From contig OZ219754.1 in the NCBI GenBank assembly GCA_964291295.2, positions 192,001 through 256,000 of the forward strand: a DNA stretch of 64,000 nucleotides, read 5' to 3'. Below are positions 1 to 55,400 of this stretch, one piece after another. Below the pieces are notes generated by a model that saw only the letters and a list, made by a program, of their open reading frames with translations, searched no databases and was not told the DNA's origin. A program made the position numbers and the translations under genes. The DNA is from an uncultured Candidatus Binatia bacterium (GTDB taxonomy: Bacteria; Desulfobacterota; Binatia; UBA9968; JAJDTQ01). Numbering within the stretch: the first letter of the stretch is position 1; each line of letters opens with the position of its first letter.

Positions 1-1037
1 TTCACCGCCACCGTCCAACTCGCCGTCTCCCCTTCCTCCACACTCACCCGTCTCTCGCTGATCAACAACGCCGGACGGTCGCTGTTGACCACCGCCGTCT
101 TCGCCGTGTTCGACCACGGACTGCTCCCCGCCTCGTTGTACGACTGTACCTGGAACTCCAGCGTGATCCCCTCTAGAAACGCCGCAAACGACACGCTCCC
201 GCTTCGCGTCGAAGCCGTCGTCTTCCCCGGAAAGTCCGTCGCCGAATACCAGTAGTCGAACATCCGATACCGATACCGCCACCCCTGGATCGTCGCGTCC
301 GTCGCCGCCTTCCAACTCAGCCCCACCTCGTCTTCCACCGCCTTCGCACTCAAATCCGTCGGCTTCGCCGGCGCACGCAGCGGCACCGCCGCCGCCGTCA
401 CCGTCACCGCCACCCGATCCTTCGCACCCGAAGCCACCGGCACCGATGCTCCATCCACCCTGAAGGCGTGGCTCACCTCCGCCTCCCCCGCCGTCACTCC
501 CGTCACCGTCACCGTCTGCGGCGTCTGGGCCGTCGCGTGGGCAAAGTACAGCACCGACGGGCTCACCCGCGCCTTGCCGCTGTCGCTGCTCACCAGCGTC
601 ACACTCCCGTCAAACGTCCCGTTCACCGCCACCGTCCAACTCGCCGTCTCCCCTTCCTCCACACTCACCCGTCTCTCGCTGATCAACAACGCCGGACGGT
701 CGCTGTTGACCACCGCCGTCTTCGCCGTGTTCGACCACGGACTGCTCCCCGCCTCGTTGTACGACTGTACCTGGAACTCCAGCGTGATCCCCTCTAGAAA
801 CGCCGCAAACGACACGCTCCCGCTTCGCGTCGAAGCCGTCGTCTTCCCCGGAAAGTCCGTCGCCGAATACCAGTAGTCGAACATCCGGTACCGATACCGC
901 CACCCCTGGATCGTCGCGTCCGTCGCCGCCTTCCAACTCAGCCCCACCTCGTCTTCCACCGCCTTCGCACTCAAATCCGTCGGCTTCGCCGGCGCACGCA
1001 GCGGCACCGCCGCCGCCGTCACCGTCACCGCCACCCG
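1..1037 (-). repeat. 621-bp tandem repeat (one full unit 417-1037 plus a partial unit 1-416) encoding an FN3 + Ig-like module
   Basis: Sequence at 1-416 recurs at 622-1037 with at least one SNP (catccgatac vs catccggtac). Confidence 0.9.
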
Positions 1038-2684
1038 CCCCGCATCCGTCACCGCCGCCGCCGTCGCTCCCGGCAGCGTGAACGCATGCCTCACCTCCGC
1101 TTCCCCCGCCGTCACTCCCGTCACCCGCACCGTCTGCGGCACCCGCGCGTTCTCGCTCGTGAAGGTCAGCACCGCCGGACTCACCCGCGCCGTGCCACTG
1201 GCGCTGCTCGCCAGCGTCACACTCCCACCAACCCCGCCATTCAACGCCACCGTCCAACTCGCCGTCTCCCCTTCCTCCACACTCACCCGTCCCTTGCTGA
1301 TCACCAGCGCCGGACGGTCCCGGTTGACCGCCACCGCCACCGCCGTGTCCGACCACGGACTGCTGCCCCCGTCGTTGTACGATTGAACCTGGAACTCCGT
1401 CGCTATCCCATCCCACCAACTCGACCCGTCCACCGCGTGCGCCCGCGTCCCTGCCACGCTCCCCCTCATCTCCACCCCACTCCCCCAACTCCTCAATCCC
1501 TTCGCCCGCAGACGGTACCTCCAACCCTTGATCGTCCCGTCCGTCGCCGCCCTCCAACTCAAATTCACCCGATCCTCCACCGCCCCCGCCGTCAGACCCA
1601 AAGGCTTCGCCGGCGCCCCCGGCACCGGCGCGATCACTCCCACAGGCCCAAAAAAACTCCGGGTCAGACCCCACCGCCGCGCATCCGCCGCCGACTCGCA
1701 GTGCACCACCGGATACGGATGGTTCACTCGATCCCGATACTTGTAGTCCAACTCCATCCAGAAGTCCTCCGACTCCCGGTCCCCATCCGCCCTCGCCGAA
1801 CCCTCCACCACCGCCACCCCGCTCCTGAACGTCACCCGCGTCGGCAAATTGAAATCCCCCAAATTCGCCCCACGAAGATCCCCTCGCCCTCCGTCCCAAA
1901 CTCGCCACCCTACCTTCACCGTCCGCGAAAACGAACGGTCCCGCTCGAACGTACACGCATTCCCCGCTCCACTCGCCACCCCCGCCTCCAGCCTCAATAC
2001 GAATCTCCGCCCCGTCGTCCCGCCCCCCAATACCCCCAAATCCTGGTACCGCAACCGTATCCCCGCTCCCGCCTCCCCGATCTCGATGTCACGACGGTCC
2101 TTCCCCGCCTTCACCGTATACACCGACCCCTTCGGCCTCAGCCGCAGCGTCAACCGCTCGTTCCCCTCCAGCTTCTTGTCCTTCAATATCTGCACATAAT
2201 GACAATGCCGCGTCGGCGCCGTGATCACGCTCTCATAAAACAAGATCCCCACGTTCCGCAGGTTCCCCCCTGTCCCCAAATCCGCCCTCCCCGCCTGCGA
2301 TCCCCCCACTATCTCGAAATCCACCTCGATCCGCGCCGCCTCCCGCCGCGTCGCCGCTCGCTCCACTCGCAGCGCCAGCCATCCCCCTTCCCACACCTTG
2401 TCCGTGCTCGACTCCAACTCCTCCCCGCGCGGACACTCATTCGTGCCCGGATCCCCACTCACCGGAAACGCCCCCGTAAAACTCAACTCCGGAAGCACCT
2501 GCCCCCCAGCCGTCTCCCCCATCCCCCCCACCATCACCACTCCCGCCAACAACCCCAAAACCCCTCGCATCATCCCCCGCAATCCCTTCCCCAATCCCAT
2601 CCTACTCTCCTTGTTCCCCAATGCCGTATTCCTCGATGCCAAAGCGCCCGCGGCGGGAGCCAATCCTCTCAAACGTGCCATCAT
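1..2684 (-). CDS. Large FN3-domain surface protein, 5' part only (runs off the window edge); near-identical paralog of the autotransporter at 52479-59456
   Basis: Reverse complement of 1-2684 matches 52479-55162 almost base for base (position sum 55163). ATG-ATG start at 2684 after a GAGGAGG-like RBS. FN3-like motifs 'LSWKAA...GWRYRY...EFQVQSYNEAGSSPWS'. Confidence 0.85.
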   Translation of the reverse strand, partial: MMARLRGLAPAAGALASRNTALGNKESRMGLGKGLRGMMRGVLGLLAGVVMVGGMGETAGGQVLPELSFTGAFPVSGDPGTNECPRGEELESSTDKVWEGGWLALRVERAATRREAARIEVDFEIVGGSQAGRADLGTGGNLRNVGILFYESVITAPTRHCHYVQILKDKKLEGNERLTLRLRPKGSVYTVKAGKDRRDIEIGEAGAGIRLRYQDLGVLGGGTTGRRFVLRLEAGVASGAGNACTFERDRSFSRTVKVGWRVWDGGRGDLRGANLGDFNLPTRVTFRSGVAVVEGSARADGDRESEDFWMELDYKYRDRVNHPYPVVHCESAADARRWGLTRSFFGPVGVIAPVPGAPAKPLGLTAGAVEDRVNLSWRAATDGTIKGWRYRLRAKGLRSWGSGVEMRGSVAGTRAHAVDGSSWWDGIATEFQVQSYNDGGSSPWSDTAVAVAVNRDRPALVISKGRVSVEEGETASWTVALNGGVGGSVTLASSASGTARVSPAVLTFTSENARVPQTVRVTGVTAGEAEVRHAFTLPGATAAAVTDAGRVAVTVTAAAVPLRAPAKPTDLSAKAVEDEVGLSWKAATDATIQGWRYRYRMFDYWYSATDFPGKTTASTRSGSVSFAAFLEGITLEFQVQSYNEAGSSPWSNTAKTAVVNSDRPALLISERRVSVEEGETASWTVAVNGTFDGSVTLVSSDSGKARVSPSVLYFAHATAQTPQTVTVTGVTAGEAEVSHAFRVDGASVPVASGAKDRVAVTVTAAAVPLRAPAKPTDLSAKAVEDEVGLSWKAATDATIQGWRYRYRMFDYWYSATDFPGKTTASTRSGSVSFAAFLEGITLEFQVQSYNEAGSSPWSNTAKTAVVNSDRPALLISERRVSVEEGETASWTVAV

Positions 2685-2809
2685 CAATCCCTCCTCGAAT
2701 CCGTCCTGTCCCTTCCTGTCCTGTCCTTCCCGTCCGTCCCTCTCCTGCCGCCAGCCTCAAGACTCCAATGCCTACACGGCCTCCAATGCCCACACGCATT
2801 GGCTGCTCA

Positions 2810-2837
2810 AATCTATCGTTCCTGACCGTATTGTCAA
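2810..2837 (-). promoter_or_regulatory. Putative sigma70 promoter of the left autotransporter copy (TTGACA-16 bp-TAGATT) with upstream T-rich UP-like tract
   Basis: The -35 hexamer and most of the -10 are conserved with the paralogous promoter at 52324-52351 while the spacer has diverged. A-tracts lie at 2838-2866 on the + strand. Confidence 0.6.
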
Positions 2838-3021
2838 GAAAACAACCGAAAAAACAGAAAAAAAAATCGGGAACAGGGCGGCGGTGGCCATCCCGCGCAT
2901 GGAAGCCATCATGCCTGCCTGCAAAGGCCCTCACATGCAATCGGGCAACGCCTGTCACCCCGGAATTCCACCGCCATCGGCACCGCTTCCCGGCTGGATA
3001 TCTGCACCGCGGATGCGGCGA

Positions 3022-4308
3022 TTATCGGCGGGCGCCCCAGGCGCCGACAAGGTCGCGTCCGGCGTCGTTGACGATGCCGGCAGCAGCACCGGCGGGGTCG
3101 CCGGCGGTGGCATAGAACCGCGCATTGGCGCGCCGACCGGCATCAACCCAAGCGCCGTCGTGGCGGACGAGGTCGTAGCCGACCGCAGCGATGGGGTGGG
3201 TCGCGCCGGCGGAATCGGTGCGGGAGAGATCGGACAACATGAGATCGATCTCCGCGAGGTCGGCGAGGTCGGCGGTCAGGGTGGCGCGGCCCGTCACCGG
3301 CTGGAACAGTGCGGACTGTGCGCCGAGGAAGGTTCCGGACCAAGTGGCGGTGCCGAGGCCGGGATCAGGCCCGGGGCCGGGCGTGCCGGCGACGCCGGGC
3401 GTGATCGCGATGGTGTCGGTGATGCTGTCGGCGGCCGCCGTGCCTCGGCGTTCGGAGATGAGCGTGCGGGTCATGGTAACGCCGAAGCCGTCGAGGCCGC
3501 CGTCCTCCATCGGTTCCGCCCAGAGACCGAACTTCTGATGGTCCTCAACCGCTGGACCCAAGGTCCATCGATGAAGCCCGGCGAAGTCGGCTTCGGCGGG
3601 CACCAGTGACCGGAACGAGGATGCGGGACACATGAGTTGGGTGCCCTGGCACGCCGCATGTCCCGTACCGGTTTGCGGATCAAGGTAAGAGAGCGTGTGG
3701 CCGACTTCGTGGAGCAGGATACCGAAGTGCCAGTTCTCAAGCCGGTTGCCGGGCCGCTGGTCGTCGATGGCATCTTCAAGGAACCGGCCGGGCAGAACGA
3801 TCCTGCCGGTCCGGGCGCAGGCGTAGTCGCTGGCAGCGCACTCTCCCGTATCCCCGACCCTGAGTTCAATGGCGTGGATGCCGCCGTCGATGAGACGCCG
3901 GGTCCAGAGCAGCGCGGCGCGGGCGGTCATGGCGTCGAGGTCGGCGGGGATCTGTCCGGGATCGGTGCCGGGGTAATCGATTCGGCGGATGACGGGGACC
4001 GGGTGGTTGGGCGCGGTTCTCGTGACATTGAAACCGCTGGCAGCGGGCGGCAGCCGCACGGTGCGGAACGCCAGCGTGGGGTCGATGGCAGCGCGGTTGG
4101 CGGCGGTGAACTCGGAGGCGACCTGGGGAACGGACGGAGCAACCGGAGCAACCCGAGGCGCGGCTCCGCCGCCGCTCCCGCCGCCGCAGGCGGAGAGCAG
4201 GGTGCCGGCGAGCAGCGCTGCGAACAGGACAGCGGGGAAAGCTGCGGAACCCCCGGCGGGAACGATGCCACGGGAGATGCCACGGGAACTCGGAGTACGG
4301 GTGAACAT
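3022..4308 (-). CDS. Lipoprotein with zinc-metallopeptidase HExxH motif and a C-terminal TbpB-like beta-barrel
   Basis: Lipobox LLSA-C followed by GGGSGGG. Motif [10 protein letters not shown]-terminal '[11 protein letters not shown]...GRATLTADL...NARFYA...AAGIV...LVGAWGARR' resembles transferrin-binding-protein-like barrels. Confidence 0.7.
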
Positions 4309-4640
4309 GGCGAACCCTCGGTTGGAACGGTGGAAAGCCGGCGGCGCCCGTTTGCGCCGATGACGCGCCAGCAGCTTGCAGCCGGAACAGAATGGGCCCG
4401 AGCCGGCACCGGATCCGCGGGCAAGCCGTGCGGGGTCGTTCCGCCCGGTCAGCGCCCGCAAGCGCCCATCAGCACCCAATTCCTTGTGCCTGCCGCTCCC
4501 AGCCACTGTAGCGCGCCACCTTGCCGCACCGCAAGAGTCAGCCCTCCGGTCAGCCCTGCCGGCCGCGTGACGTCGTCACCGCCGGGCGGCTCGCCCGCAA
4601 AGGCGCGCGAACGGTGCACCTCCTTCCGCAAGACCATGCC

Positions 4641-4667
4641 GGATCCGCGCTTTCGCGGGCATGACGG
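4641..4667 (-). repeat. REP-like palindromic element (CCGTCATGCCCGCGAAAGCGCGGATCC)
   Basis: Resembles the widespread GTCAT(T/G)CCCGCGAAAGCGGGAATCC intergenic REP hairpin. Single copy seen in the window. Confidence 0.45.
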
Positions 4668-4806
4668 AGTGGTAGGGGACGCCGTGGCGGCGATTTGGCA
4701 AGCCGCACCGGTTGCGCTAGAAACAAGGACTTCCAGGCCTCGTGGCTTCCATCCGCCTGCGCCCTCCGGACCGCCTGAAACCGAAATCCATACCAAGGAG
4801 CCCGAC

Positions 4807-7500
4807 ATGGCATCACCGAGCATCGACACCTTCCACACCGCCTCCACTATCGAAGCGGGCGGCAACCGCTACCGGATCCACCGTCTCGACGCCTTGGCGC
4901 GGGAGACTTCCCTGCCGGTGGACCACCTGCCGTTCTCGCTCAAGATCCTGCTGGAGAACCTGCTCCGGTGCGAGGACGACCGGCACGTGTCGGCCGCCGA
5001 CATTCAGGCGCTGGCGGGATGGGACCCGGCAGCGAAGCCGAACAGGGAGATCGCCTTCATGCCGGCGCGGATCCTGCTGCAGGATCTCACCGGGGTTCCC
5101 GCCATCGTGGACCTGGCGGCCATGCGGGAGGGTATCCGGCGGCTCGGCGGCGACCCGAAACGCATCAACCCGCTGCAACCCGTGGACCTTGTCATCGACC
5201 ACTCCGTGCAGGTGGACCACTTCGGCTCCCGGCAAGCCTTCGCTTCCAACTCCGAACTGGAGTACGCGCGCAACCGGGAACGGTACGCATTCCTGCGCTG
5301 GGGCCAGAAGGCCTTCGACAACTTCAGCGTGGTGCCGCCGGACACCGGCATCGTCCACCAGGTCAATCTGGAGTTCCTCGGCAAGGTGGTCTTCACCGCG
5401 CCATCGAACGGTGACACCTTCGCCTACCCCGACACGCTGGTGGGAGCCGATTCCCACACGCCCATGATCAACGGACTGGGGGTTCTGGGCTGGGGCGTGG
5501 GCGGCATCGAGGCCGAGGCGGCCATGCTGGGCCAGCCGCTCATCATGCTGATCCCGGAGGTCATCGGGTTCAGGCTCCACGGCAGGCTGCCCGAGGGGGC
5601 CACGGCCACCGATCTGGTGCTGACCATCGTGCAGATGCTGCGCAGGAAGGGGGTGGTGGAGAAGTTCGTGGAGTTCTACGGTCCGGGGCTGTCGAGCCTG
5701 GCGCTGGCGGACCGGGCCACCATCGGCAACATGGCGCCCGAGTACGGCGCCACCGTGGGCTTCTTCCCGGTGGACGACGAGACCCTGGAGTACCTGAAGC
5801 TGTCGAACCGGAGCCCGGAACTCATCAGCCTGGTGGAGGCCTATTCCAAGGAGCAGGGCCTGTTCCGCACCGACGCGACGCCCGACCCGGTCTTCACCGA
5901 CACCCTGGAACTCGACCTGGGCGAGGTGGAGCCGAGTCTGGCGGGACCCCGCCGGCCCCAGGACCGGGTGCCGCTGGGCCGCGCCAGGCAAGCCTTCGCC
6001 GAGGTTCTGCCCGACATGAAGGGTGGCGATACCGCCAGCCGCGTGCCGGTCCGGCAGAACGGGGACTCCTTCGAGCTCACCCACGGATCGGTGGTGATCG
6101 CCGCCATCACCAGTTGCACCAACACATCCAACCCCTCGGTGATGGTGGGCGCCGGGCTGCTGGCGAAGAAGGCCGTGGAACGGGGCCTCAAGGCCAAGCC
6201 CTGGGTCAAGACCAGCTTGGCCCCGGGTTCCAAGGTGGTCACCGAGTACCTCAGACAGACGGGCTTGCTGGAGCCCCTGGGAGCGATGGGGTTCCACCTG
6301 GTCGGTTACGGCTGCACCACCTGCGTGGGCAACGGCGGACCACTGCCCGAGAACATCGGCAACGCGATCCGGGAAGGCAATCTGGTGACCACGGCCGTGC
6401 TTTCGGGCAACCGGAACTTCGAGGGCCGGATTCACCCCCACGTGCGGGCCAACTATCTGGCCTCGCCTCCCCTGGTGGTGGCCTACGCCATCGCCGGCAC
6501 CATGGACGTGGATCTCTACAACGACCCCGTCGGGCGGGACTCCGCCGGCCAGCCGGTGATGCTGAGGGAGATCTGGCCCACGCCGGAGGAAGTGCGCGCG
6601 GAAGTGGCCCGGGGCGTCACCGCCGACGCCTTCCGGAAAGAGTACGGCGACGTCTTCCAGGGCGACGCCATGTGGCGAAGCATGCCGGTCCCCGAGGGGG
6701 AGTTGTTCGCATGGGAACCGGACTCGACCTATGTCCGGCAGCTGCCGTTTTTCACGGACATGCCCGCGGAGCCGGCCGAGCCCGGCGACATCCGGGGCGG
6801 GCGGGTCCTGGCGTTGCTGGGGGACTCGGTGACCACCGACCACATCTCCCCGGCCGGGGCCATCGAACGGAACGGCCCGGCGGCGCGCTATCTCACGGAG
6901 CACGGCGTGGAGCCCGGCGATTTCAACCAGTACGGCGCCCGCCGGGGCAACCACGAGGTGATGATGCGCGGAACCTTCGCCAACGTGCGGCTGAGGAACC
7001 AGATCGCACCGGGAACCGAGGGCGGCTGGACCGTGCACCAACCCGACAACGAGCCCATGTCCATCTTCGACGCCGCCATGAAGTACCAGCGGGAAGGGAC
7101 GCCGCTGATCGTCATCGCCGGCAAGGAATACGGTACCGGATCGTCCCGGGACTGGGCGGCCAAGGGGCCGCGCCTGCTGGGCGTCAAGGCCGCCATCGTC
7201 GAGAGCTTCGAGCGCATCCACCGGAGCAATCTCATCGGCATGGGCATCCTGCCGCTGGAGTTCATGAAGGGCGAGTATGCCGCGTCATTGGGGCTCACAG
7301 GCTTCGAAACCTACGACATCGGCGGCGTGGGCGACGGCCTGAGCGTACGCAAGGAGCTTCAGGTCACGGCCACCAGCGCCGAGGGAAAGACGACCCCCTT
7401 CCGTGTCACCTGCCGCATCGACACGCCGGCGGAACTGGCGTACTACCGCCACGGCGGCATCCTGGAATACGTGCTCCGGCAACTGGCCGGAAAGGCATAG
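4807..7500 (+). CDS. acnA: Aconitate hydratase A
   Basis: AAGGAG RBS then ATG at 4807. Motifs [68 protein letters not shown]. Confidence 0.97.
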
Positions 7501-7689
7501 CTCGATCCGGCAGCGTCGGCCCGCCTCCCCATGCGGGCCGATTTGCTCCCCCGCCCCCCGAGGCCGCCCGGCGAGACCGGTGACTGACGGCCGGGCGTTC
7601 GCCCGGAATCGACACCGCCGGCCGGTGGACGCCGCCGCCGCGACGGACACCTGGACCTGATCCGGCCCTTCTGGCAAGAAGGTGAGGCC

Positions 7690-8853
7690 ATGGAGGAGGA
7701 ACGGCTCTCGGTCCGCATCGTCCGCGGCATCAACGAGGTGCCGCGGGAGGCGTGGGACTCGCTCCTGCGGGACGGTTCGCCGTTCATGCGCTGGGACTGG
7801 CTGGACTGCCTGGAGGCCACGGGCTGCGTCTGCGACCGGACGGGCTGGGCACCCCACCACCTGGTGGTCGAAAAGGGCGCGCACATCCTCGGCGCCTGCC
7901 CGATGTACCTCAAGTCCCACAGCATGGGGGAGTTCGTCTTCGACCACCATTGGGCTTCCCACGCCGTGCAGACGGGCATCCAGTACTATCCCAAGATGCT
8001 CGTCGGCGTACCCTTCACGCCGGTGGCGGGCTCGCGCTTCCTCACCGCTCCGGGAATCGACCGCCAGGAAATCCTCGCCGTACTGGGACGGGCGCTGGTG
8101 GAGATATGCCGCGGCAACGAGCTTTCGTCCATCCACATCAACTTCTGCAACCGGGAAGAGATGGACGCATTGGAGAAGCTGGACTTCATCCCCAGGATCG
8201 GGCTCCAGTTCCATTGGCAGAACCGCGGCTACGAGACCTTCGACGACTATCTGGGCGCTTTCCGGAGCGGCCGCCGCAACAAGATCCGGCGCGAGCGGCG
8301 CGAACTGGACCACCAGGGCATCCACGTCCGGGCACTTCCTCACGGCGAGATCACCGCGGATGTCCAGCGCACCCTGTTCGAACTCTACAAGCACCACATC
8401 GACCGCCTCTACTACGGCCGGCAGTACCTGAACCGCCGCTTCTTCGACGAGTTGCTGAAGCGGCCCTATCCGTTCCTCTGCCCCATCGTCGCCCGGCGCG
8501 GCGGCCGCATCATCGCCGGCACCTTCAACGTCCGCGGCCCCGACACCCTCTACGGCCGCTACTGGGGCGCCTTCGAGGACCATCGCTACCTGCACTTCAA
8601 CGTGTGCTACTACGCCGCCATCGAGCATTGCATCCACGAGTCGCTGGCCCGCTTCGAGGCCGGCGCCGGCGGCAGCTTCAAGAGCTTCCGCGGTCTCCAG
8701 GCCGCCAGAACCTACAGCGCCCACTACGTCCGCGACGGGCGTTTCCGCAACGCCCTGACCCGCCACCTGCGGGAAGAGCGTTCCGAGACGCTGGCCCGCC
8801 AGCAGTATCTGCGGGAAGAGAGCCCGTTGAAGGAGGGGGAGGGAGCGGACTAG
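7690..8853 (+). CDS. FemAB-like GNAT family N-acetyltransferase (DUF482/COG3146 type)
   Basis: Motifs YLKSHSMGEFVFDHHWA, YYPKMLVGVPFTPV, LYGRYWG, LHFNVCYYAAIE, FEAGAGG. Confidence 0.9.
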   Translation: MEEERLSVRIVRGINEVPREAWDSLLRDGSPFMRWDWLDCLEATGCVCDRTGWAPHHLVVEKGAHILGACPMYLKSHSMGEFVFDHHWASHAVQTGIQYYPKMLVGVPFTPVAGSRFLTAPGIDRQEILAVLGRALVEICRGNELSSIHINFCNREEMDALEKLDFIPRIGLQFHWQNRGYETFDDYLGAFRSGRRNKIRRERRELDHQGIHVRALPHGEITADVQRTLFELYKHHIDRLYYGRQYLNRRFFDELLKRPYPFLCPIVARRGGRIIAGTFNVRGPDTLYGRYWGAFEDHRYLHFNVCYYAAIEHCIHESLARFEAGAGGSFKSFRGLQAARTYSAHYVRDGRFRNALTRHLREERSETLARQQYLREESPLKEGEGAD

Positions 8854-8909
8854 CCGGCCCGCGTGGACGGAGAGCCCGCGCGTTGCCGAGGTGTCACGGG
8901 GGACTCCCG

Positions 8910-8993
8910 GCGGCGGGGAATCCGCCCGGACGTTTCCCGCCGCAGGCCGCCGCTCCGGGAGACGTGACCTCCGCTGGCGGGATTCCCCGCCGC
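8910..8993. terminator. Long stem-loop between the convergent GNAT gene and clpA (possible bidirectional terminator)
   Basis: Perfect 14-bp inverted repeat GCGGCGGGGAATCC (8910-8923) / GGATTCCCCGCCGC (8980-8993), with inner stem CGTTTCCCG/CGGGAGACG. Confidence 0.5.
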
Positions 8994-8994
8994 G

Positions 8995-11238
<2,244 letters not shown>

Positions 11239-11256
11239 CTCATCCCTCTTCGACGC

Positions 11257-11571
11257 TCACTCTTCTTCCATGCTGCACTTGAGCGGATACTCGTACTGCC
11301 GCGCCAGACTTTCCGTGGTCTTCACCTTGGTCTCCGCCACCTCGTAGGGATAGACCCCGGCGACGCCGATGCCGTTCTGGTGTACATGCATCATGATCTG
11401 CACGGCCTCGGTGTTGTCCTTGTTGAAGACGTACTCCAGAACCTGCACCACGAACTCCTTGGTGGTGTAGTCGTCGTTGTGCAGCAGCACCTTGAAGAGA
11501 GACGGCCGCTGGAGCTTTCTCTCGGTTTCGACGACGACGTCCTGATCCGGGTCGTGGTTGCGCTTGCTCAT
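11257..11571 (-). CDS. clpS: Clp protease adaptor ClpS
   Basis: KVLLHNDDYTTKEFVV, IMMHVHQNG, EVAETKV, YPLKCSME. Confidence 0.96.
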   Translation of the reverse strand: MSKRNHDPDQDVVVETERKLQRPSLFKVLLHNDDYTTKEFVVQVLEYVFNKDNTEAVQIMMHVHQNGIGVAGVYPYEVAETKVKTTESLARQYEYPLKCSMEEE

Positions 11572-11640
11572 CGCGGTGTTCCTGAACAGCCGACCGCGGC
11601 GTCCATTCTAGTACGGCGGGGCCGGGGGTTCAATGAAGCT

Positions 11641-12045: not shown

Positions 12046-12110
12046 GGCAACCTCCCGCAATGTTGATACGCAGCAATGTTGATACGCAGCCTTGGTACGC
12101 AGACCCTGGA

Positions 12111-42492: not shown

Positions 42493-42774
42493 GACGAAAT
42501 CTCCGGCCCCTGCTCTCCGATCCCTTCTTCACGCGCACACGAGGTCAAGGAGACTCGGCGCGCCCCCTTGTCCCCGGCAAGATCCACCGGCACGTGGCGG
42601 CGGACTCCGGCGTGAGGAGGATCGGCCACCCTGCCGGCGCCGAAAGGACGAGGCAGAAAGGCACACCGGGGTTCAGGGTACGGGATGTCCGCGGAGGCTC
42701 TCCTCCGCCAAGCCGAACGCAAGATCGGCACCACCGGAACAGGGGCCCTGCCGGAGACACGGCCCGCTCGTTCG

Positions 42775-45954: not shown

Positions 45955-46254
45955 CGTATGCTCCTGGTCACTGTTCATTGTCCGTTTCCGCCGTCATCCG
46001 CTTTCAGAGACGTTCAAGTATCGTCATTGTGGTCATGTATAGCGGCGGCAAACCTACAATGAAGCGGTCTCCGCGTCAATGGAGCTTTCGAGCGGGGCCG
46101 TGTCGCGGGGCACCCGGACCGTGCGCTGGTGGCGGACCGCGTCAGGATCACACGGTTCGCATGTGCCTGCCCGCGGTCAGGCTTCGCCTGGCCCGAGCCA
46201 TCGTGAAAGAGGGTCCGTCCGCAACACCGGAAACGACACGGCCCAAAACGACAC

Positions 46255-46283
46255 GGCCCCGATGGGTTCTCGCCGTCGGGGCC
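46255..46283 (-). terminator. GC-rich hairpin downstream of tRNA-Asn
   Basis: GGCCCCGATGG...CCGTCGGGGCC stem, followed on the minus strand by GTGTCGTTTT. Confidence 0.45.
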
Positions 46284-46312
46284 TCGCGTCGAAAGTTCGC
46301 GGTGCGAGAGAT

Positions 46313-46388
<76 letters not shown>

Positions 46389-46432
46389 ACGACTCGTTGA
46401 AGCCAGAGCACTGAAGCTACCACACGACGGCT

Positions 46433-46927
46433 TCAATTTCCAGGAGCGGCGAAGCCGAGGCGCCTCAGTTCTTCGACCATGAGTTGTTGGTGCGTGGCGG
46501 GCCAGAAGATCCGGCGGCAGCCCGGGCAGGCCGAGAAGACATCCCGGGTCTCGAAGACGTGGGGAGGCACCTTGTCCCGGACCTCATCCCTGGCCACAGG
46601 CTGAAGCCGCTCGTTGCACTCGACGCACCGAGTCAGCAGACTCTTGAACGGATCCAGTCCGCAGGCTTTCACCACCTGATTCAGCTGTCCCCGGAAATGG
46701 TCGTCGTGGATGAAGAGACATCGGTCCGCATTCCGGCTGTACATCTTGCGGTCCCGGGTCAGGACGACGCGGTGCTCCCGCGTCGCCATGCGCACAAGGC
46801 CCCGCCCGGACAGGTGCTGGCCGTGGATGGCATCCTGGCCGATGATCCGCAGCCACCGGGCGAGCCGTCCCAACATCCGGTCCGCCGCGAACTTCAACTC
46901 GTCCTCCGGGCGTCTCACCGTGACCAT
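46433..46927 (-). CDS. Mut7-C RNase domain (PIN + zinc ribbon, DUF82-like) protein
   Basis: FAADRMLGRLARWLRIIG, VLTRD, RCVECN, CPGCRRIFW..TH. Confidence 0.88.
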   Translation of the reverse strand: MVTVRRPEDELKFAADRMLGRLARWLRIIGQDAIHGQHLSGRGLVRMATREHRVVLTRDRKMYSRNADRCLFIHDDHFRGQLNQVVKACGLDPFKSLLTRCVECNERLQPVARDEVRDKVPPHVFETRDVFSACPGCRRIFWPATHQQLMVEELRRLGFAAPGN

Positions 46928-46952
46928 GGACAGTCCCTTCGTTACCTGTCTC

Positions 46953-47285
46953 CTATCTTGGATCGATCAACTGATCGAGATGGATCCAGAGCACCCGGGA
47001 GTAGCGGAACAGGAACGGGGCGGACGCCAGGAGGATCAGGCACGACGCCAGATAGATGGCGGCGGCACCGAAGCCCGACAGCAGCATGGCGACGATGATG
47101 GGCAGGACCACGACAAGGGCGAGAGCGTAGCTGAAATACATGGCGCCGACAAAGTAACCCTGCTCGCGCTCGAACTCAAGGCCGCAGACCGGGCACTGGC
47201 GGTTCATCCGGAAGAGACTGGCAAAGACGGGGCCGGCGGTGCAACGGGGGCAGCGGAGTCGCATGATGGCCAGAAATTTTCTCAC
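46953..47285 (-). CDS. DUF983-like zinc-finger membrane protein
   Basis: RCPRC...CPVCGLEFEREQGYFVGAMY followed by two transmembrane segments. Confidence 0.8.
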   Translation of the reverse strand: MRKFLAIMRLRCPRCTAGPVFASLFRMNRQCPVCGLEFEREQGYFVGAMYFSYALALVVVLPIIVAMLLSGFGAAAIYLASCLILLASAPFLFRYSRVLWIHLDQLIDPR

Positions 47286-48382
47286 GGCGCCTCACAGAGT
47301 TGGTAGGCGGCGGCGTTTCCCCCGGGCCCGTTGGCGGAGCCGGCCACACGCGGCAACGCATCGAACGGGTCGTCCATGTCCCGGACGGCGGCGCGGATGG
47401 CCGCCACGGTCCTTGGGAGATGCCGGCGCTGCCGCTGGTAGAACTCTTCGAACCGCGCCAGGTCGGTGACGTAGAACAGACTCTGCAAAATCACGGCGTT
47501 GTCGAGCGGGCGCCGGCTGAAGGCGGCGCGGCGGTGACCCGGTCTGCCCTCCAGCGCCTTCGCCCACGCCTGCCGGGTTCGGGCGAACACGTGGTCACGG
47601 CGGCGAAGCTTCTCGGCCTCGGGAATCGTCCCGGCATAAAGCCTGCGCAGGCACCCCACCAGTTCCATCATGAGACCGGAGAACTCCAACTCATCCCGCC
47701 ATGCGCGCCGGGCCGCCACCGCCTCGGGGCGCCGGGCGCCATGGCGCCAAGTGAAGAAATCGATGGCGCCGCGCTTGCCGACAAAGTTGGCCAGGCTTTC
47801 ATTGAAGGCCACGGAGCCTTTCACGAACAACGTGCCGTGCAGCAACTCGTGCAGGACGATGTCGGCCAGGCGCACGCGGTTCAGCTTCAGCAGACGCCCG
47901 AGCAAAGGGTCGTCGAACCAACCCAGGGTGCTGAAGGCGCCGGCGGGCCGAATATGGGTGTCGTACCCCCGGGCGGCCAGGGCCCGGGCCTCCTTCCTGG
48001 CATCTTCCGGGTCGAAGTAGCCCTTGTAGGGCACATGGCCCACGAAAGGAAACCACCAGCTGTAGGGCTTCAGGGCGGTCTTGGGAGCGGCGGTGAGCAC
48101 GTGCACGAGCACCGGGCGATCGACGTAGGAATAGGTGGCGTAGCTGCCGCCAACGTCGAGACGCAACTGGTTCTCTGCGTATTCCCGGAGCTCCAGCACC
48201 ATCTCGAGCTTGCGGCGGACTTCCGGCTCGACCTCGTCCCCGGCCAGCATCGTCGTGATGGGCGTGCGGCGCCACAGGATGCGGCCCTCCTCGTAGGCGG
48301 CGCGGATGACGTATTCCGGAGAGCAGCCGCACAGGGCCAGCAGCAGGCACAGCCATGACAATCTCTTGAAGGTCGCCAGCAC
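47282..48382 (-). CDS. Predicted zinc aminopeptidase lipoprotein (DUF2265-like)
   Basis: Lipobox LCGC, WWFPFVGHVPYKGYF, AFSTLGWFDDPL, HELLH...FNESLANFVG. Confidence 0.85.
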   Translation of the reverse strand: MLATFKRLSWLCLLLALCGCSPEYVIRAAYEEGRILWRRTPITTMLAGDEVEPEVRRKLEMVLELREYAENQLRLDVGGSYATYSYVDRPVLVHVLTAAPKTALKPYSWWFPFVGHVPYKGYFDPEDARKEARALAARGYDTHIRPAGAFSTLGWFDDPLLGRLLKLNRVRLADIVLHELLHGTLFVKGSVAFNESLANFVGKRGAIDFFTWRHGARRPEAVAARRAWRDELEFSGLMMELVGCLRRLYAGTIPEAEKLRRRDHVFARTRQAWAKALEGRPGHRRAAFSRRPLDNAVILQSLFYVTDLARFEEFYQRQRRHLPRTVAAIRAAVRDMDDPFDALPRVAGSANGPGGNAAAYQLCEAP

Positions 48383-48431
48383 GTTGGTTTCCCCCGGCGC
48401 GACACGGACGGCGGGCTATGGACACCCGTCC

Positions 48432-50285
48432 CTACACGCGTGACGCCATGTCCGGCGTCCCGGGGGCGTCCGCACCGTCGTCCGCCCCCTGGAACTGCAA
48501 CTGGCGCAGCCGATAATAGACCCCGCGCCGGTCCATCAACTCCGCATGCGAGCCCATCTCGCGTATCACCCCTCGGTGGAAGACCACAATGCGGTCGGCA
48601 TTGCGAATGGTGGACAGGCGGTGGGCTATCACCAGGCAGGTACGGTTGGCCATGATCTTCTCGAAGGCGCCCTGCACCAGCAATTCGGTCTCGGTGTCGA
48701 CGCTGGACGTGGCTTCGTCCAGCACCAGGATCTCCGGGTCGACCACGAACATCCGCACCAGCGCCAGGAGTTGCCGTTGCCCGGCCGAGAGGTTGTTGCC
48801 CCGCTCGCGTACCGGAGCGCGCAGCCCGCCGGGCAGGCGCCGGACAAAACCCTCGGCGCTGGCGGCGCGCAACGCCGCACGGACCCGGTCTTCGGAAACA
48901 TCCGGATTGCCCAGCTTGAGGTTCGAAAGGATGTCCCCCGAGAACAGGAAAACGTCCTGGAGCACCACTCCCATGTGGCGCCGCAGGTCATCGAGCTTCC
49001 ATTCCCGGACGTCCCGACCGCCCACGCGCACCACGCCGCTGTCGACATCGTAGAAACGGCTCATGAGCTTGATGGTGGTGGTCTTGCCGGAACCGGTGGC
49101 GCCGATGACCGCCACCCGCTCGCCCGGCTCGATCCTGAAGGACACGCCCTTGAGCACGGGATCGCCGGGCCGGTAGCTGAACCAGACGTTGTCGAACTCC
49201 ACCGCGCCCCGGGACGGCCGGATCATCCCGGCGGCGGACGGCGGACCCGGGGACGATGCGGCCAGGGAAAGTGCCCGGCCAGGCGTCTCCACCGGCGTGT
49301 CCAGCAGAGCGAAGATTCGCTCGGCCGCGGTCATGGCCGCCTGGATGACGGCGTACTTGTTGCTGAAGTCGCGCAACGGCACGAACAGCCGGCGAATGTA
49401 CTCGCTGAAGGCCACGAACGTGCCGATGCCCACCACACCCTGCAGCACCTCGCCGCCGCCGTACCAGAGCAGCAACGCGATGCTCAACGACCCGGCGGCC
49501 TCCACCATGGAGAACAGCGACGCCTCGTAGACGTTGGATCGCTGGATGGCGTCGCGGTGGTCCCGGTTGAGGCCGTCGAACTCCTCGAAGCTCCGGGCTT
49601 GCCGGTTGAAGAGCTGGATCACGGCCATGCCGGGAATGGCTTCGCCGAGGTACGCGTTGACCCGCGCGATGCGCGTCCGGATCAGGCGGTAGGTCTGCCG
49701 CGCCTTGATGCGGAAAACATTGATGCCCAGCAGCAGCAAGGGAATCAGCGCCAGCGACACCAGGGCCAGTTCGAAGTGCAGCGACATCATGATGGCGACG
49801 ATGGCCACGATGAGAACCAGATCGGCCACCAGGTTCATGGCGCCGGCGGCGAACATTTCCTGCAGCACCTCCACGTCCGTGGTCATGCGGGTCATGAGCC
49901 GGCCCACCGGGTTGCGGTCGAAGTAGCGCATGGGCAGGCGCTGCACGTGGGAGAACAACGCGATGCGCAGGTCCGCGAGGCAGCGCTGCGCCACCTTCAT
50001 GGAAAGGTAGTACTGGAAGAAATAGGCCGTGGCCTCCGCTGCCAGCGCGCCGGCGAACAGCAGGCCGGTGCTCAGGAGGGTGAGGCGGTCGCCGGCGCCG
50101 ACCGCGTCGATGCCGGCCTTGAGGAGGAGCGGCTGGGCCAGGTTGAAGAATTCGTACACCGGCAGCAGCAGCAGCGACAGGAAGAAAAGCTTCCGGTGCG
50201 GCCGCAGGAACTGCCAGAGGCGCCGGGCCAAGACCAGATCATAGGCCTTGCCGGAAACGTCCTCCTGCTCTTTCGATGCATCCAT
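48432..50285 (-). CDS. ABC exporter, fused permease/ATPase (heterodimer subunit B)
   Basis: TMD plus GATGSGKTT, LSAGQRQ, LDEATSSVD, IAHRLST. Confidence 0.92.
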   Translation of the reverse strand: MDASKEQEDVSGKAYDLVLARRLWQFLRPHRKLFFLSLLLLPVYEFFNLAQPLLLKAGIDAVGAGDRLTLLSTGLLFAGALAAEATAYFFQYYLSMKVAQRCLADLRIALFSHVQRLPMRYFDRNPVGRLMTRMTTDVEVLQEMFAAGAMNLVADLVLIVAIVAIMMSLHFELALVSLALIPLLLLGINVFRIKARQTYRLIRTRIARVNAYLGEAIPGMAVIQLFNRQARSFEEFDGLNRDHRDAIQRSNVYEASLFSMVEAAGSLSIALLLWYGGGEVLQGVVGIGTFVAFSEYIRRLFVPLRDFSNKYAVIQAAMTAAERIFALLDTPVETPGRALSLAASSPGPPSAAGMIRPSRGAVEFDNVWFSYRPGDPVLKGVSFRIEPGERVAVIGATGSGKTTTIKLMSRFYDVDSGVVRVGGRDVREWKLDDLRRHMGVVLQDVFLFSGDILSNLKLGNPDVSEDRVRAALRAASAEGFVRRLPGGLRAPVRERGNNLSAGQRQLLALVRMFVVDPEILVLDEATSSVDTETELLVQGAFEKIMANRTCLVIAHRLSTIRNADRIVVFHRGVIREMGSHAELMDRRGVYYRLRQLQFQGADDGADAPGTPDMASRV

Positions 50286-50325
50286 TGCCACGCTGTTCCC
50301 GGACTGGCGACCGCCGCGCCGGTCC

Positions 50326-52074
50326 TCAGAGCTCGTCCAGCTCGTCCGACACCTGCTGGCGGCGGTACATCTGCGCGTACAGCCCGCCGGCCCGCAGCAG
50401 CGACTCGTGGTCGCCGCGTTCGACGATCCGGCCCTCATCCAGCACCAGGATCTCGTCGGCTTCCTTGATGACCGCCATGCGATGGGAGATGAGGATACAG
50501 GTCCTGCCCTTGAGCACACTCTCGAAGCCGTGGAGGATGCGCCGCTCGGTCTGCGAGTCCACGCTCGACAGACAGTCGTCCAGGATCAGGCATTCCGGGT
50601 CGGCCAGGATGGCGCGGGCCAGGGTCGCCCGCTGCTTCTGGCCGCCGGAGAGGGCGATGCCGCGCTCCCCCACGCGGGTGTCGAGGCCGTCCGGAAAGAC
50701 CTCCACCTCGCTTTCGAGATCGGCCGCGTCCAGGACCCGGCGCACCTCCCGCTCGCTGGCGCCGGCGTCGCCGAACTTCAGGTTTTCCTGGATGGAGGTG
50801 GAGAACAGGAACGGGTCCTGCGGCGCGTAGCCGATGGCGCCGCGCAACTCTTCCAGGGACAGCGCCCGGATATCGACGCCGCCCATGCGGATGGTGCCCG
50901 CGGTCACGTCGTGGAGCCGCGGGATCAGATGCGTCAACGTGCTCTTGCCCGCACCCGTACGTCCGACGATGGCCACCTTGCGGCCCGGCGGCACCTCGAA
51001 GCTCACCTCCTTCAGCACCGCCTCCCCATGGTCGGCGCCGTTGTAGGCGAACGACACCCTGTCGAACGCGATGCCCCGCTCCTTGTCACGCAGCGGCACG
51101 GGATGCTCGGGGTCGGCGATGGCCGGCTCCACCACAAAGATCTCCTCGAGCCGCTCCATGGCGGCGCGACCGCGCTCGAGCAGCGAGATCATCCAGCCAA
51201 AGGCGGCCATGGGCCAGGCGAGCACGTTCAGATACAGGATGAACGCCACCAGGTCGGCAACGCCGCTCTGCTCATGGATGATGAGCCAGCCGCCATACCA
51301 CAGCACCACCAGCACGGTGAGACCGTGCAACGCCACCATGATGGGGTTGATCATCCCACGGCAGCGGGCCAGGTCCAGGTTGCGCACCTGGTACTCGTCG
51401 TTCATCCCGGTGAACCCGGCGGTCTGGGGCACCGCCTGCACGTACGCCTTGACCACATGCATGCCGCTCAGGTTCTCCTGCACATGGGCGCTCATGCGCG
51501 ACATCTGCCGCTGGACCCGCAGCGACGCCCGCTGGATCCGCCCGCGGAACTGCAGGAACACCAGTGCCAGGAGCGTCAGGCACGCGCCCACCGCCAGCGT
51601 CAGACTCGGGTTCATGGCGAACATGAACACCGCCGCGTAGACGAAGTAGAGGGGCGTGTTCACCAGGTTGAGAACACCGGGACCCAGCAGCATGCGCACG
51701 GCATTGATGTCGTTGACGGCCCGGGACATGAGGTCGCCGGTCTTCTGTGACTGGTAATAGGCGAGAGGCAACTTCTCCAGGTGGGCGAAAAGGTCATTGC
51801 GCAGGTCGTACTCGACGTTCCGGCCGGCGTTGAAGATGATGGACCGGGAGAACGCGCGCAGCAGCCCGCCGCCCACCGCAGCCACCGCGATCCGCAGGAT
51901 GTAGCCGCCCAACTCGGACCCGGGGTCGCCGCGCTCGATGACATCAATGGCGCCCCGGACCCACCACGGCACCACCATGAGCAGGCTCGTGGTGCCGATC
52001 AGGCACACCCCGCCTGCCAGATAACGCCGCCGGTAGCGCCAGAGATAATCGGTCAACCGTGCAATGCCGGCCAT
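50326..52074 (-). CDS. ABC exporter, fused permease/ATPase (heterodimer subunit A)
   Basis: TMD plus GRTGAGKST, LSGGQKQR, degenerate Walker B LDDCLSSVD, ISHR. Confidence 0.92.
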   Translation of the reverse strand: MAGIARLTDYLWRYRRRYLAGGVCLIGTTSLLMVVPWWVRGAIDVIERGDPGSELGGYILRIAVAAVGGGLLRAFSRSIIFNAGRNVEYDLRNDLFAHLEKLPLAYYQSQKTGDLMSRAVNDINAVRMLLGPGVLNLVNTPLYFVYAAVFMFAMNPSLTLAVGACLTLLALVFLQFRGRIQRASLRVQRQMSRMSAHVQENLSGMHVVKAYVQAVPQTAGFTGMNDEYQVRNLDLARCRGMINPIMVALHGLTVLVVLWYGGWLIIHEQSGVADLVAFILYLNVLAWPMAAFGWMISLLERGRAAMERLEEIFVVEPAIADPEHPVPLRDKERGIAFDRVSFAYNGADHGEAVLKEVSFEVPPGRKVAIVGRTGAGKSTLTHLIPRLHDVTAGTIRMGGVDIRALSLEELRGAIGYAPQDPFLFSTSIQENLKFGDAGASEREVRRVLDAADLESEVEVFPDGLDTRVGERGIALSGGQKQRATLARAILADPECLILDDCLSSVDSQTERRILHGFESVLKGRTCILISHRMAVIKEADEILVLDEGRIVERGDHESLLRAGGLYAQMYRRQQVSDELDEL

Positions 52075-52323
52075 GACGTGAAGGAACGCGATGCTCCAGG
52101 TGTTTCAGGGAGTTGAACGGCCTTGGGGAGGCGGACAAACCCGAAGGCGCTTCCATTCAATTTAACCAGGAACCCGGCGAATTTCCAACGGCGTGGCAGG
52201 TGCGGGATCACAAGACGCGGGACTGAAGGGGGAAGTGGTTGCTTGCCACCCTCTTTCAGTTCTGAACGGGAATTTTCTGCTGTTTCGGGCCACCTCTTTT
52301 CGGTCATTTTTTCGGTTATTTTC

Positions 52324-52351
52324 TTGACAAACCGGTGGGAAAGGATAGTCT
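52324..52351 (+). promoter_or_regulatory. Putative sigma70 promoter (TTGACA-16 bp-TAGTCT) with T-rich UP-like tract
   Basis: Conserved in position with the paralogous promoter at 2810-2837. T-tracts at 52296-52322. Confidence 0.6.
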
Positions 52352-52478
52352 TGGGAACCCAATGCGTGTGAGCATTGGAGGCCGTGTAGGCATTGGAGTC
52401 TTGAGGCCGGGGGTTGGAGAGGGACGGAGGGGGAAGGACAGGCTGGGGAAGGGACAGGACGGATTCGAGGAGGGATTG

Positions 52479-55400
52479 ATGATGGCACGTTTGAGAGGGA
52501 TTGCTCCCGCCGCGGGCGCTTTGGCATCGAGGAACAAGGCATCGGGGAACAAGGAGGGTTGGATGGGATTGGGGAAGGGATTGCGAGGGATCATGCGGGG
52601 GTTTCTGGGGTTGTTGGCGGGAGTGGTGATGGTGGGGGGGATGGGGGAGACGGCTGGGGGGCAGGTGCTTCCGGAGTTGAGTTTTACGGGGGCGTTTCCG
52701 GTGAGTGGGGATCCGGGCACGAATGAGTGTCCGCGCGGGGAGGAGTTGGAGTCGAGCACGGACAAGGTGTGGGAAGGGGGATGGCTGGCGCTGCGAGTGG
52801 AGCGAGCGGCGACGCGGCGGGAGGCGGCGCGGATCGAGGTGGATTTCGAGATAGTGGGGGGATCGCAGGCGGGGAGGGCGGATTTGGGGACAGGGGGGAA
52901 CCTGCGGAACGTGGGGATCTTGTTTTATGAGAGCGTGATCACGGCGCCGACGCGGCATTGTCATTATGTGCAGATATTGAAGGACAAGAAGCTGGAGGGG
53001 AACGAGCGGTTGACGCTGCGGCTGAGGCCGAAGGGGTCGGTGTATACGGTGAAGGCGGGGAAGGACCGTCGTGACATCGAGATCGGGGAGGCGGGAGCGG
53101 GGATACGGTTGCGGTACCAGGATTTGGGGGTATTGGGAGGCGGGACGACGGGGCGTGGGTTCGTATTGAGGCTGGAGGCGGGGGTGGCGAGTGGAGCGGG
53201 GAACGCGTGTACGTTCGAGCGGGACCGTTCGTTTTCGCGGACGGTGAAGGTAGGGTGGCGAGTTTGGGACGGAGGGCGAGGGGATCTTCGTGGGGCGAGT
53301 TTGGGGGATTTCAATTTGCCGACGCGGGTGACGTTCAGGAGCGGGGTGGCGGTGGTGGAGGGTTCGGCGAGGGCGGATGGGGACCGGGAGTCGGAGGACT
53401 TCTGGATGGAGTTGGACTACAAGTATCGGGATCGAGTGAACCATCCGTATCCGGTGGTGCACTGCGAGTCGGCGGCGGATGCGCGGCGGTGGGGTCTGAC
53501 CCGGAGTTTTTTTGGGCCTGTGGGAGTGATCGCGCCGGTGCCGGGGGCGCCGGCGAAGCCTTTGGGTCTGACGGCGGGGGCGGTGGAGGATCGGGTGAAT
53601 TTGAGTTGGAGGGCGGCGACGGACGGGACGATCAAGGGTTGGAGGTACCGTCTGCGGGCGAAGGGATTGAGGAGTTGGGGGAGTGGGGTGGAGATGAGGG
53701 GGAGCGTGGCAGGGACGCGGGCGCACGCGGTGGACGGGTCGAGTTGGTGGGATGGGATAGCGACGGAGTTCCAGGTTCAATCGTACAACGACGGGGGCAG
53801 CAGTCCGTGGTCGGACACGGCGGTGGCGGTGGCGGTCAACCGGGACCGTCCGGCGCTGGTGATCAGCAAGGGACGGGTGAGTGTGGAGGAAGGGGAGACG
53901 GCGAGTTGGACGGTGGCGTTGAATGGCGGGGTTGGTGGGAGTGTGACGCTGGCGAGCAGCGCCAGTGGCACGGCGCGGGTGAGTCCGGCGGTGCTGACCT
54001 TCACGAGCGAGAACGCGCGGGTGCCGCAGACGGTGCGGGTGACGGGAGTGACGGCGGGGGAAGCGGAGGTGAGGCATGCGTTCACGCTGCCGGGAGCGAC
54101 GGCGGCGGCGGTGACGGATGCGGGGCGGGTGGCGGTGACGGTGACGGCGGCGGCGGTGCCGCTGCGTGCGCCGGCGAAGCCGACGGATTTGAGTGCGAAG
54201 GCGGTGGAAGACGAGGTGGGGCTGAGTTGGAAGGCGGCGACGGACGCGACGATCCAGGGGTGGCGGTATCGGTACCGGATGTTCGACTACTGGTATTCGG
54301 CGACGGACTTTCCGGGGAAGACGACGGCTTCGACGCGAAGCGGGAGCGTGTCGTTTGCGGCGTTTCTAGAGGGGATCACGCTGGAGTTCCAGGTACAGTC
54401 GTACAACGAGGCGGGGAGCAGTCCGTGGTCGAACACGGCGAAGACGGCGGTGGTCAACAGCGACCGTCCGGCGTTGTTGATCAGCGAGAGACGGGTGAGT
54501 GTGGAGGAAGGGGAGACGGCGAGTTGGACGGTGGCGGTGAACGGGACGTTTGACGGGAGTGTGACGCTGGTGAGCAGCGACAGCGGCAAGGCGCGGGTGA
54601 GCCCGTCGGTGCTGTACTTTGCCCACGCGACGGCCCAGACGCCGCAGACGGTGACGGTGACGGGAGTGACGGCGGGGGAGGCGGAGGTGAGCCACGCCTT
54701 CAGGGTGGATGGAGCATCGGTGCCGGTGGCTTCGGGTGCGAAGGATCGGGTGGCGGTGACGGTGACGGCGGCGGCGGTGCCGCTGCGTGCGCCGGCGAAG
54801 CCGACGGATTTGAGTGCGAAGGCGGTGGAAGACGAGGTGGGGCTGAGTTGGAAGGCGGCGACGGACGCGACGATCCAGGGGTGGCGGTATCGGTACCGGA
54901 TGTTCGACTACTGGTATTCGGCGACGGACTTTCCGGGGAAGACGACGGCTTCGACGCGAAGCGGGAGCGTGTCGTTTGCGGCGTTTCTAGAGGGGATCAC
55001 GCTGGAGTTCCAGGTACAGTCGTACAACGAGGCGGGGAGCAGTCCGTGGTCGAACACGGCGAAGACGGCGGTGGTCAACAGCGACCGTCCGGCGTTGTTG
55101 ATCAGCGAGAGACGGGTGAGTGTGGAGGAAGGGGAGACGGCGAGTTGGACGGTGGCGGTGAACGGGACGTTTGACGGGAGTGTGACGCTGGTGAGCAGCG
55201 ACAGCGGCAAGGCGCGGGTAAGCCCGTCGGTGCTGTACTTTGCCCACGCGACGGCCCAGACGCCGCAGACGGTGACGGTGACGGGAGTGACGGCGGGGGA
55301 GGCGGAGGTGAGCCACGCCTTCAGGGTGGATGGAGCATCGGTGCCGGTGGCTTCGGGTGCGAAGGATCGGGTGGCGGTGACGGTGACGGCGGCTCCGGTG

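Follow-up and report, generated by a model that had tools for sequence, protein, structure and literature searches.

The question raised by this locus is whether two near-identical autotransporter-type genes, set in opposite orientation about 49.5 kb apart, form a surface-protein switch that works without a recombinase or are paralogs kept alike by recombination. The stretch analyzed (the window) comprises 64,000 nucleotides of an uncultured Candidatus Binatia bacterium, positions 192001-256000 of contig C1 (OZ219754.1, assembly GCA_964291295.2); coordinates marked C1, and those given for repeats elsewhere in the genome, refer to the whole-genome contig, and all others to the window. A previous interpretation of the window (the sequence-only reading) had proposed that a crossover in the shared 5′ regions would exchange promoter and N terminus between two different distal halves. 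The present analysis indicates that the two genes are most probably a recombining pair of inverted adhesin paralogs of the tufA/tufB kind, homogenized by gene conversion, and not a demonstrated switch.

A repeat search of the window confirmed the inverted repeat previously described between 1-2684 and 52479-55162, together with the ∼170 bp of homology in the promoter region. The arms extend over 2,716 nt (1-2716 versus 52447-55162) and are 99% complementary, with a weaker continuation of 86% identity (2729-2854 versus 52307-52432) and a spacer of 49,452 nt. The repeat is internally repetitive, with units of 618-621 bp, and its length and identity are far beyond chance. Both genes point outward, as had been described, the left open reading frame (ORF) running off the window start on the minus strand and the right ORF (52335-59456) lying on the plus strand. 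That the repeat stops at base 1 reflects where the window was cut: a BLAST search of the genome with the right gene found that the homology goes on outside. The inverted repeat is thus real, and larger than could be seen from the window.

The two genes share two blocks of homology, separated by a centre that gives no alignment at the DNA level. Block A is aligned by BLAST with C1 194854-190809 (4,050 columns, 98.94% identity, 37 mismatches, six gap openings) and block B with C1 188447-186246 (2,206 columns, 96.7% identity), and the centre between them spans 923 bp in the right copy and 2,361 bp in the left (C1 188448-190808). On the left, 2,827 codons are uninterrupted by a stop; both genes are intact, encoding, from the shared ATG (MMARLRG), proteins of 2,803 residues on the left and 2,325 on the right. 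The two different distal passenger/barrel halves of the sequence-only reading were not found; the copies instead share ∼1.2 kb more of near identity (∼99%), followed by the central cassette and then a barrel that is 96.7% identical. That reading had itself named identical 3′ halves as an outcome speaking against it, and the left 3′ end, once recovered and aligned, came close to this, with the centre alone differing.

The differences between the copies are clustered along the gene. Within the coding part of block A, 13 of the 22 differences fall in the first 127 bp (P = 1.9e-14), leaving a core of 3,749 bp with nine differences (99.8% identity), three of which lie in 53300-56354. Nei-Gojobori estimates made for each segment gave a synonymous divergence (dS) of 0.18 in the first 43 codons, 0.006 in the block A core and 0.0025 in codons 274-1291 of that core, rising to 0.73 in the centre, with values of 0.084 in the first half of block B and 0.024 in the barrel. 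The corresponding nonsynonymous divergence (dN) is 0.48 in the centre and 0.054 in the first half of block B. Synonymous differences number six in the 1,248 codons of the A core versus 27 in 723 codons of block B (P = 1e-7), and the noncoding leader is ∼86% identical versus >99% in the adjoining coding DNA. Divergence at silent sites therefore spans a more than hundredfold range, meaning that the segments are of different ages, a pattern characteristic of non-reciprocal exchange that has happened repeatedly. If the duplication were very recent and no conversion had followed, the diverged edges and centre would reflect fast, selection-driven change; such an origin could account for the 99.8-99.9% identity of the block A core and for the high dN of the centre and the first half of block B. 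Positive selection on the protein, however, does not explain why dS differs to this extent between segments, and the contrast between the leader and the coding DNA beside it also argues against this origin, which is considered very improbable. From the distribution of differences we infer that repeated interlocus gene conversion probably homogenized the shared blocks, as the sequence-only reading had suggested for their homogeneity.

Upstream of the two genes, homology begins at a T-run that immediately precedes a -35 box common to both (TTGACA), and extends into a conserved leader that occurs at no other place in the genome. Farther upstream, beyond the -35 box, the two copies have unrelated DNA. 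The candidate -10 boxes, TAGATT on the left and TAGTCT on the right, differ at two bases. These promoter calls are consensus matches and hence candidate sites; a consensus promoter scan returned two sites for the left copy and none at the scan threshold for the right, where the -10 box is weaker. The duplicated unit therefore appears to be a whole transcription unit, comprising its own candidate promoter, the gene, and 27 bp past the stop. Since the duplicated unit includes the promoter in each copy, crossing over within block A would swap a near-identical promoter and N terminus. Its products, P(right)+A+V(left)+B(left) and P(left)+A+V(right)+B(right), would leave both genes essentially as before, and a crossover in block B would swap near-identical barrels only. 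The exchange of promoter and N terminus that had been envisaged would thus have little meaning, as the promoters and the first 1,290 codons are near-identical.

These observations bear directly on a recombinase-free flip-flop, in which block A crossovers would invert the segment at a useful frequency and re-pair regulatory DNA with adhesin variants. The gene-length inverted repeats, the outward genes with promoters inside the segment, and the recombination that has clearly happened between the copies would all suit such a switch, as would the unrelated DNA upstream of the -35 box, the differing -10 boxes, and the different central cassettes, one with a His-rich insert. Inversions between inverted paralogs are, moreover, documented for hsdMS of Staphylococcus aureus (PMC6778178). 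Nevertheless, exchanging promoters and the first 1,290 codons would be almost silent, the barrel ends match at 96.7% identity, and the orientation of the segment, described below, also argues against it. A switch of this kind is accordingly regarded as very unlikely, and homogenization of a paralog pair by conversion is the preferred reading.

In agreement with the sequence-only reading, no invertase was found in the window, Pfam comparison of 34 and a further 12 ORFs from the window and the left island returning no recombinase. The serine recombinase family PF00239 had no match genome-wide, with a control that was positive in 12 of 14 known genomes. There are 13 genome matches to PF00589, the nearest being a fragment at C1 136.7-137.2 kb, ∼49 kb off, with none between C1 138 kb and 511 kb. 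Across these searches the locus lacks the site-specific recombinase that characterizes programmed DNA inversion. By established knowledge, homologous recombination could act on such inverted repeats to invert the DNA between them, and recA is present in the genome (C1 1200067-1200855, 463.7 bits).

Table 1. Features of the inverted pair and the segment between its members, in window coordinates
Feature	Position	Strand	Remarks
Left autotransporter-type gene, 5′ part	1..2684	-	ATG at 2684; stop at C1 186273-186275; open frame
Left candidate promoter and 5′ leader	2685..2854	-	∼86% identical to right; -35 TTGACA and -10 TAGATT at 2837-2810
Inner part of 14.1 kb species-specific left insert	2855..4660		Holds ORF 3025-4575 (-)
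Chromosomal block, both ends collinear with relatives	4661..52192		Ancestral orientation; carries species-specific islands
Right candidate promoter and 5′ leader	52307..52478	+	Same T-run, -35 TTGACA, -10 TAGTCT
Right autotransporter-type gene	52479..59456	+	2,325 residues and stop
Block A	52307..56354	+	Core 52606-56354 with nine differences
Right central cassette	56355..57277	+	923 bp; ends in 138-bp His-rich insert, ∼57141-57277
Block B	57278..59483	+	Pre-barrel Ig domains, linker, PF03797 beta-domain, 27 bp past stop

The surroundings of both genes were compared with relatives, on the left over 20 kb on each side of the aconitase gene in 10 same-genus genomes of one to four contigs, to which 101 heuristically called proteins of the present genome were matched. 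The aconitase itself is 88-92% identical in 24 of the 27 other genomes of the genus. At the left site, all 10 genomes have the CoA-transferase gene (C1 181306-182556 in the present genome) immediately ahead of aconitase, with the two genes oriented to each other as they are here, and in the five aligned at the DNA level homology ends at C1 182556 and restarts at C1 196658-196695. The intervening 14.1 kb are a species-specific insert that includes the left adhesin gene, a D12 adenine methylase, a winged-helix ORF, and a weak IS1595 zinc-ribbon remnant (23.4 bits, under the cut-off). At the right site, an ATP-binding cassette (ABC) exporter (window 50326-52074) adjoins a methyltransferase gene (59800-60534) in five of five relatives; here homology ends at 52189-52192 and restarts at 59855-59869, and the insert of 7.66 kb holds the adhesin gene alone.

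Between the two sites, the order and strands of aconitase (+), aminopeptidase (-), and purM (-) are the same in five of five relatives. The conserved neighbours and this marker order identify the bracketed block as core chromosome, and the 49.5 kb are in the ancestral orientation in the assembly. Cumulative GC skew locates the origin at about 0.84 Mb and the terminus at about 2.72 Mb, and the skew of the bracketed interior is negative like that of its flanks, in keeping with its replichore. Both observations go against the inversion proposed by the sequence-only reading, and weigh against a flip-flop (10/10 and 5/5 comparisons). The segment, moreover, is no dedicated cassette but consists of ∼35 ordinary genes, including those for aconitase, a FemAB-like protein, ClpA/ClpS, ilvD/edd, and two ABC exporters. 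Another inverted pair of this genome, described below, is unflipped as well.

Contigs assembled from four public runs (X1-X4; Logan contigs) were compared with window 46000-64000. Those of X2 cover 46342-52401 and 59443-64000, joining the right copy to both flanks and ending at the repeat, and a 2,142-nt contig of the same run fits 55364-56354 and then passes into 1,151 nt that differ from the right locus, which is what the left copy would give. In X2, X3, and X4, contigs jump from 57140/57143 to 57282, corresponding to the left copy, which lacks the His-rich insert. The flank junctions of the right copy are also present in X3, and in X4 one contig reaches 52334 and another starts from 59556. 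The contigs of three runs end at repeat edges; X1 (share 0.05) yielded short pieces of 90-95% identity on the ABC genes only, from which no inference is drawn. Word depth over block A is ∼250 in X2, possibly the source sample, versus 121-134 in its flanks, and it is ∼2 times that of the flanks in X3 as well, contig word depth not being a copy number.

It could be argued that one copy, or its placement, is an artefact of repeat mis-assembly, as the chromosome is in three contigs, C1 ends inside another tandem repeat, and short-read contigs of this repeat-rich genome break at repeat edges. Each copy, however, has its own unique flanks, diverged leader, and central cassette. The left-type contig of X2 and the joining of the right copy to both its flanks in that run are likewise against an artefact, as is the recurrence of the right-copy junctions in X3 (in X4, of the right flank), with left-type contigs in both of these runs. 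The word depth of X2 fits two copies, within the limit already given. Mis-assembly is therefore held to be extremely unlikely.

Taken together, these data favour the following course of events. In this species alone, each adhesin copy was inserted at an intergenic position that is conserved in related species, the two sites lying 49.5 kb apart. The copies are old in places, as suggested by the dS of the 5′ end and the centre, and their shared blocks would have been overwritten repeatedly by interlocus conversion, the non-reciprocal branch of RecA-type homologous recombination. The same recombination may occasionally be resolved as a crossover, flipping the 49.5 kb block; such a flip would join near-identical promoters and N termini to the two central cassettes and would thus be expected to produce neither an on/off nor an antigenic switch. 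Of the sequence-only reading, gene conversion and the lack of an invertase are upheld, and the different distal halves and a consequential exchange of promoter and N terminus are not.

Several points weigh against this account. The gene calls in the flanks are our own, based on third-position GC content (GC3), and not curated annotation, and the relatives comprise one genome per species, which limits what they convey about strain-level polymorphism in orientation. The dS of 0.73 in the centre could reflect import from another member of the family and not divergence in place. The differing -10 boxes and the unrelated DNA upstream of the -35 box make some regulatory difference between the copies possible. 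None of the contigs of the four runs spans the 4 kb of block A, so that they do not show orientation on single molecules, and a minority of cells with a flipped block is possible. That the population flips the 49.5 kb block at a measurable rate through block A, as a recombinase-free regulatory swap of adhesin variants, is nonetheless judged highly improbable. Were it the case, a flip would re-wire which cassette variant, the long one with FN3/Calx-beta/PKD modules or the short His-rich one, is expressed under which condition, and the unrelated upstream DNA would matter, the left gene lying next to a divergent HExxH-lipoprotein gene and the right gene next to a divergent ABC-exporter operon.

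Both proteins are predicted to be giant autotransporter-type adhesins. Inspection of the translations by eye revealed a basic and then hydrophobic N-terminal stretch (a putative signal), a passenger of FN3, Calx-beta, and PKD domains, and a final Trp residue. The right protein is arranged as a unique N-terminal domain, 621-bp FN3+Ig repeats, an FN3-Calx-beta-PKD region, the central cassette, and the beta-domain. Pfam identified three fn3 stretches in the right protein and four in the left, in addition to Calx-beta and PKD/Ig-type domains, and the left centre contains additional FN3/Calx-beta/PKD modules compared with the right. The 46-residue, very His-rich insert is found in the right copy only, precisely where the centre meets block B, and may serve in metal binding or represent simple-sequence expansion.

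The C-terminal 448 residues match Pfam family PF03797 with 30.2 bits (cut-off 26, E = 4.9e-7), a match that was not listed when the whole 2,373-residue right ORF was scanned. An AlphaFold model of this part, built from 11 sequences, has a mean pLDDT of 59.9 and a pTM of 0.57, and consists of an N-terminal helix followed by 18 predicted strands, with the last 120 residues below a pLDDT of 50. In a Foldseek search this barrel model of middling confidence matched outer-membrane barrels of several classes nonspecifically (TM-score ≤0.39), among them AIDA-I (4mee, target TM-score 0.39) and EstA (3kvn), and the 12-strand autotransporter barrel fold was not confirmed by the model and this search. No Pfam family was assigned to the N-terminal domain (residues 76-432) or to the right central cassette, and NCBIfam gave sub-threshold domain matches only. 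With the N-terminal domain as the query, no match was obtained in 40 relatives, 24 of them of the same genus. At least 10 further genes of the genome have a related C-terminal part of ∼54% identity. In a whole-protein search, the nearest outside relatives, at 31-41% identity, were from metagenome-assembled genomes (MAGs) of Longimicrobiales/Gemmatimonadota and one gammaproteobacterial MAG, and not from the 24 same-genus genomes searched; these distant relatives outside the genus hint at horizontal spread of the adhesin family.

Other genes of the window were observed alongside the pair. In the left insert, the minus-strand ORF listed in Table 1, which is divergent from the left adhesin gene, encodes ∼500 residues with a lipoprotein-like signal and an HExxH motif recognized by eye, and matched no Pfam or NCBIfam family. 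Inside the bracketed block lies a third autotransporter-like gene (42775-45978, minus strand; PF03797 E = 1.4e-7) with four 396-bp tandem repeats of 97-100% identity, beside a tRNA gene (46316-46388, minus strand). The genes matching 39301-40197 and 46433-46927 are neighbours in one relative (G002), and 40200-46300 looks like another species-specific island. The region 31502-39070 contains cas3 (helicase and HD domain), a GSU0053-type gene, and two large ORFs without a family, and the genes flanking this module also adjoin each other in G002. No direct repeats of a CRISPR array were found in 27000-42000 and no cas1 or cas2 was seen among the Pfam-scanned ORFs; the module may be type I-U-like and array-less. 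A defence-like islet (16931-20928) is made up of genes for an Eco29kI-type restriction endonuclease, a DNA methylase with an HTH_17 domain, a SIR2-family protein, and an MqsA-like helix-turn-helix protein.

The genome as a whole is rich in repeats; a self-BLAST lists 113 pairs with lengths of ≥1 kb and identities of ≥90%, among which three further inverted pairs stand out. One inverted pair of ∼8 kb and 97.4% identity (3,065,456-3,073,368 versus 3,342,029-3,349,977) again involves autotransporter genes (C1 3,066,070-3,071,676, minus strand, and 3,343,831-3,349,347, plus strand). For this second pair, four flanking markers were followed, and the outer and inner neighbours at both ends are retained in five of five relatives; this ancestral adjacency means that no fixed inversion was produced there either. 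Another pair (2,374,608-2,382,440 versus 3,616,614-3,624,447; 7.8 kb, 99.77%, 1.24 Mb apart) belongs to frames of 10,794 and 10,112 codons with FN3/Calx-beta/PKD modules, located at ∼2.35-2.38 Mb (plus strand) and 3.617-3.648 Mb (minus strand), and contig C1 ends within the tandem repeats of the second of these frames. Inverted pairs of 4.6 kb (663,184-667,799 versus 699,175-703,791; 99.2%) and 1,776 bp (349348-351123 versus 353679-355454; 100%) were also observed.

The locus illustrates that an inverted duplication of a whole gene, when cut by the edge of a window, can pass for a special repeat confined to the 5′ end. The pair opens no new mechanism. It offers a clear case of concerted evolution acting segment by segment on genes for very large surface adhesins, in a lineage about which little is known. 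Gene-length inverted repeats, of which the genome has several, are also sites at which assembly from short reads breaks down and inversions may originate.

Among known systems, the sap locus of Campylobacter fetus has a single promoter on a small invertible element, which recombination couples to different gene bodies, and only one homolog is expressed at a time. The present genes are similarly surface-protein homologs in opposite orientation with a conserved 5′ region but, unlike those of sap, each has its own candidate promoter in the repeat, and the segment between them consists of 49.5 kb of core genes. The single shared promoter on which a sap-type switch depends is thus missing from this pair. 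Inverted repeats within surface or specificity coding sequences are likewise a feature of recombinase-driven programmed inversions that alter genes (Milman et al. 2023, PMC9881135), whereas here no recombinase is nearby and the repeats are gene-length.

In Staphylococcus aureus, a 1,748-bp inverted repeat formed by hsdMS mediates a reversible inversion of 1.42 Mb (Guerillot et al. 2019, PMC6778178). The two cases are alike in having conserved regions parted by non-conserved ones, scattered single-nucleotide polymorphisms, and an arrangement invisible to short reads. For hsdMS, that study (PMC6778178) showed both orientations with a phenotype and recA independence, whereas at the present locus one orientation is on record and no phenotype would be expected. 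For tufA/tufB of Salmonella enterica, Paulsson et al. (2017, PMC5485169) describe concerted evolution of inverted duplicates by RecA-type conversion, linked to inversion. Both pairs are near-identical inverted genes on one chromosome, with homology ending at approximately the gene bounds and no dedicated recombinase, and the limiting of tufA/tufB conversion by gene bounds (PMC5485169) fits the more diverged edges observed here. The tufA/tufB genes are 1.2 kb long and essential, whereas those described here are species-specific surface-protein genes of 7-8.4 kb in which a non-homologous central cassette splits the homology into two blocks, with conversion deduced from the pattern of differences and inversion hypothetical. 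By this comparison, with tufA/tufB and hsdMS as the models, the locus most closely resembles inverted paralogs that evolve in concert through conversion and now and then give rise to an inversion.

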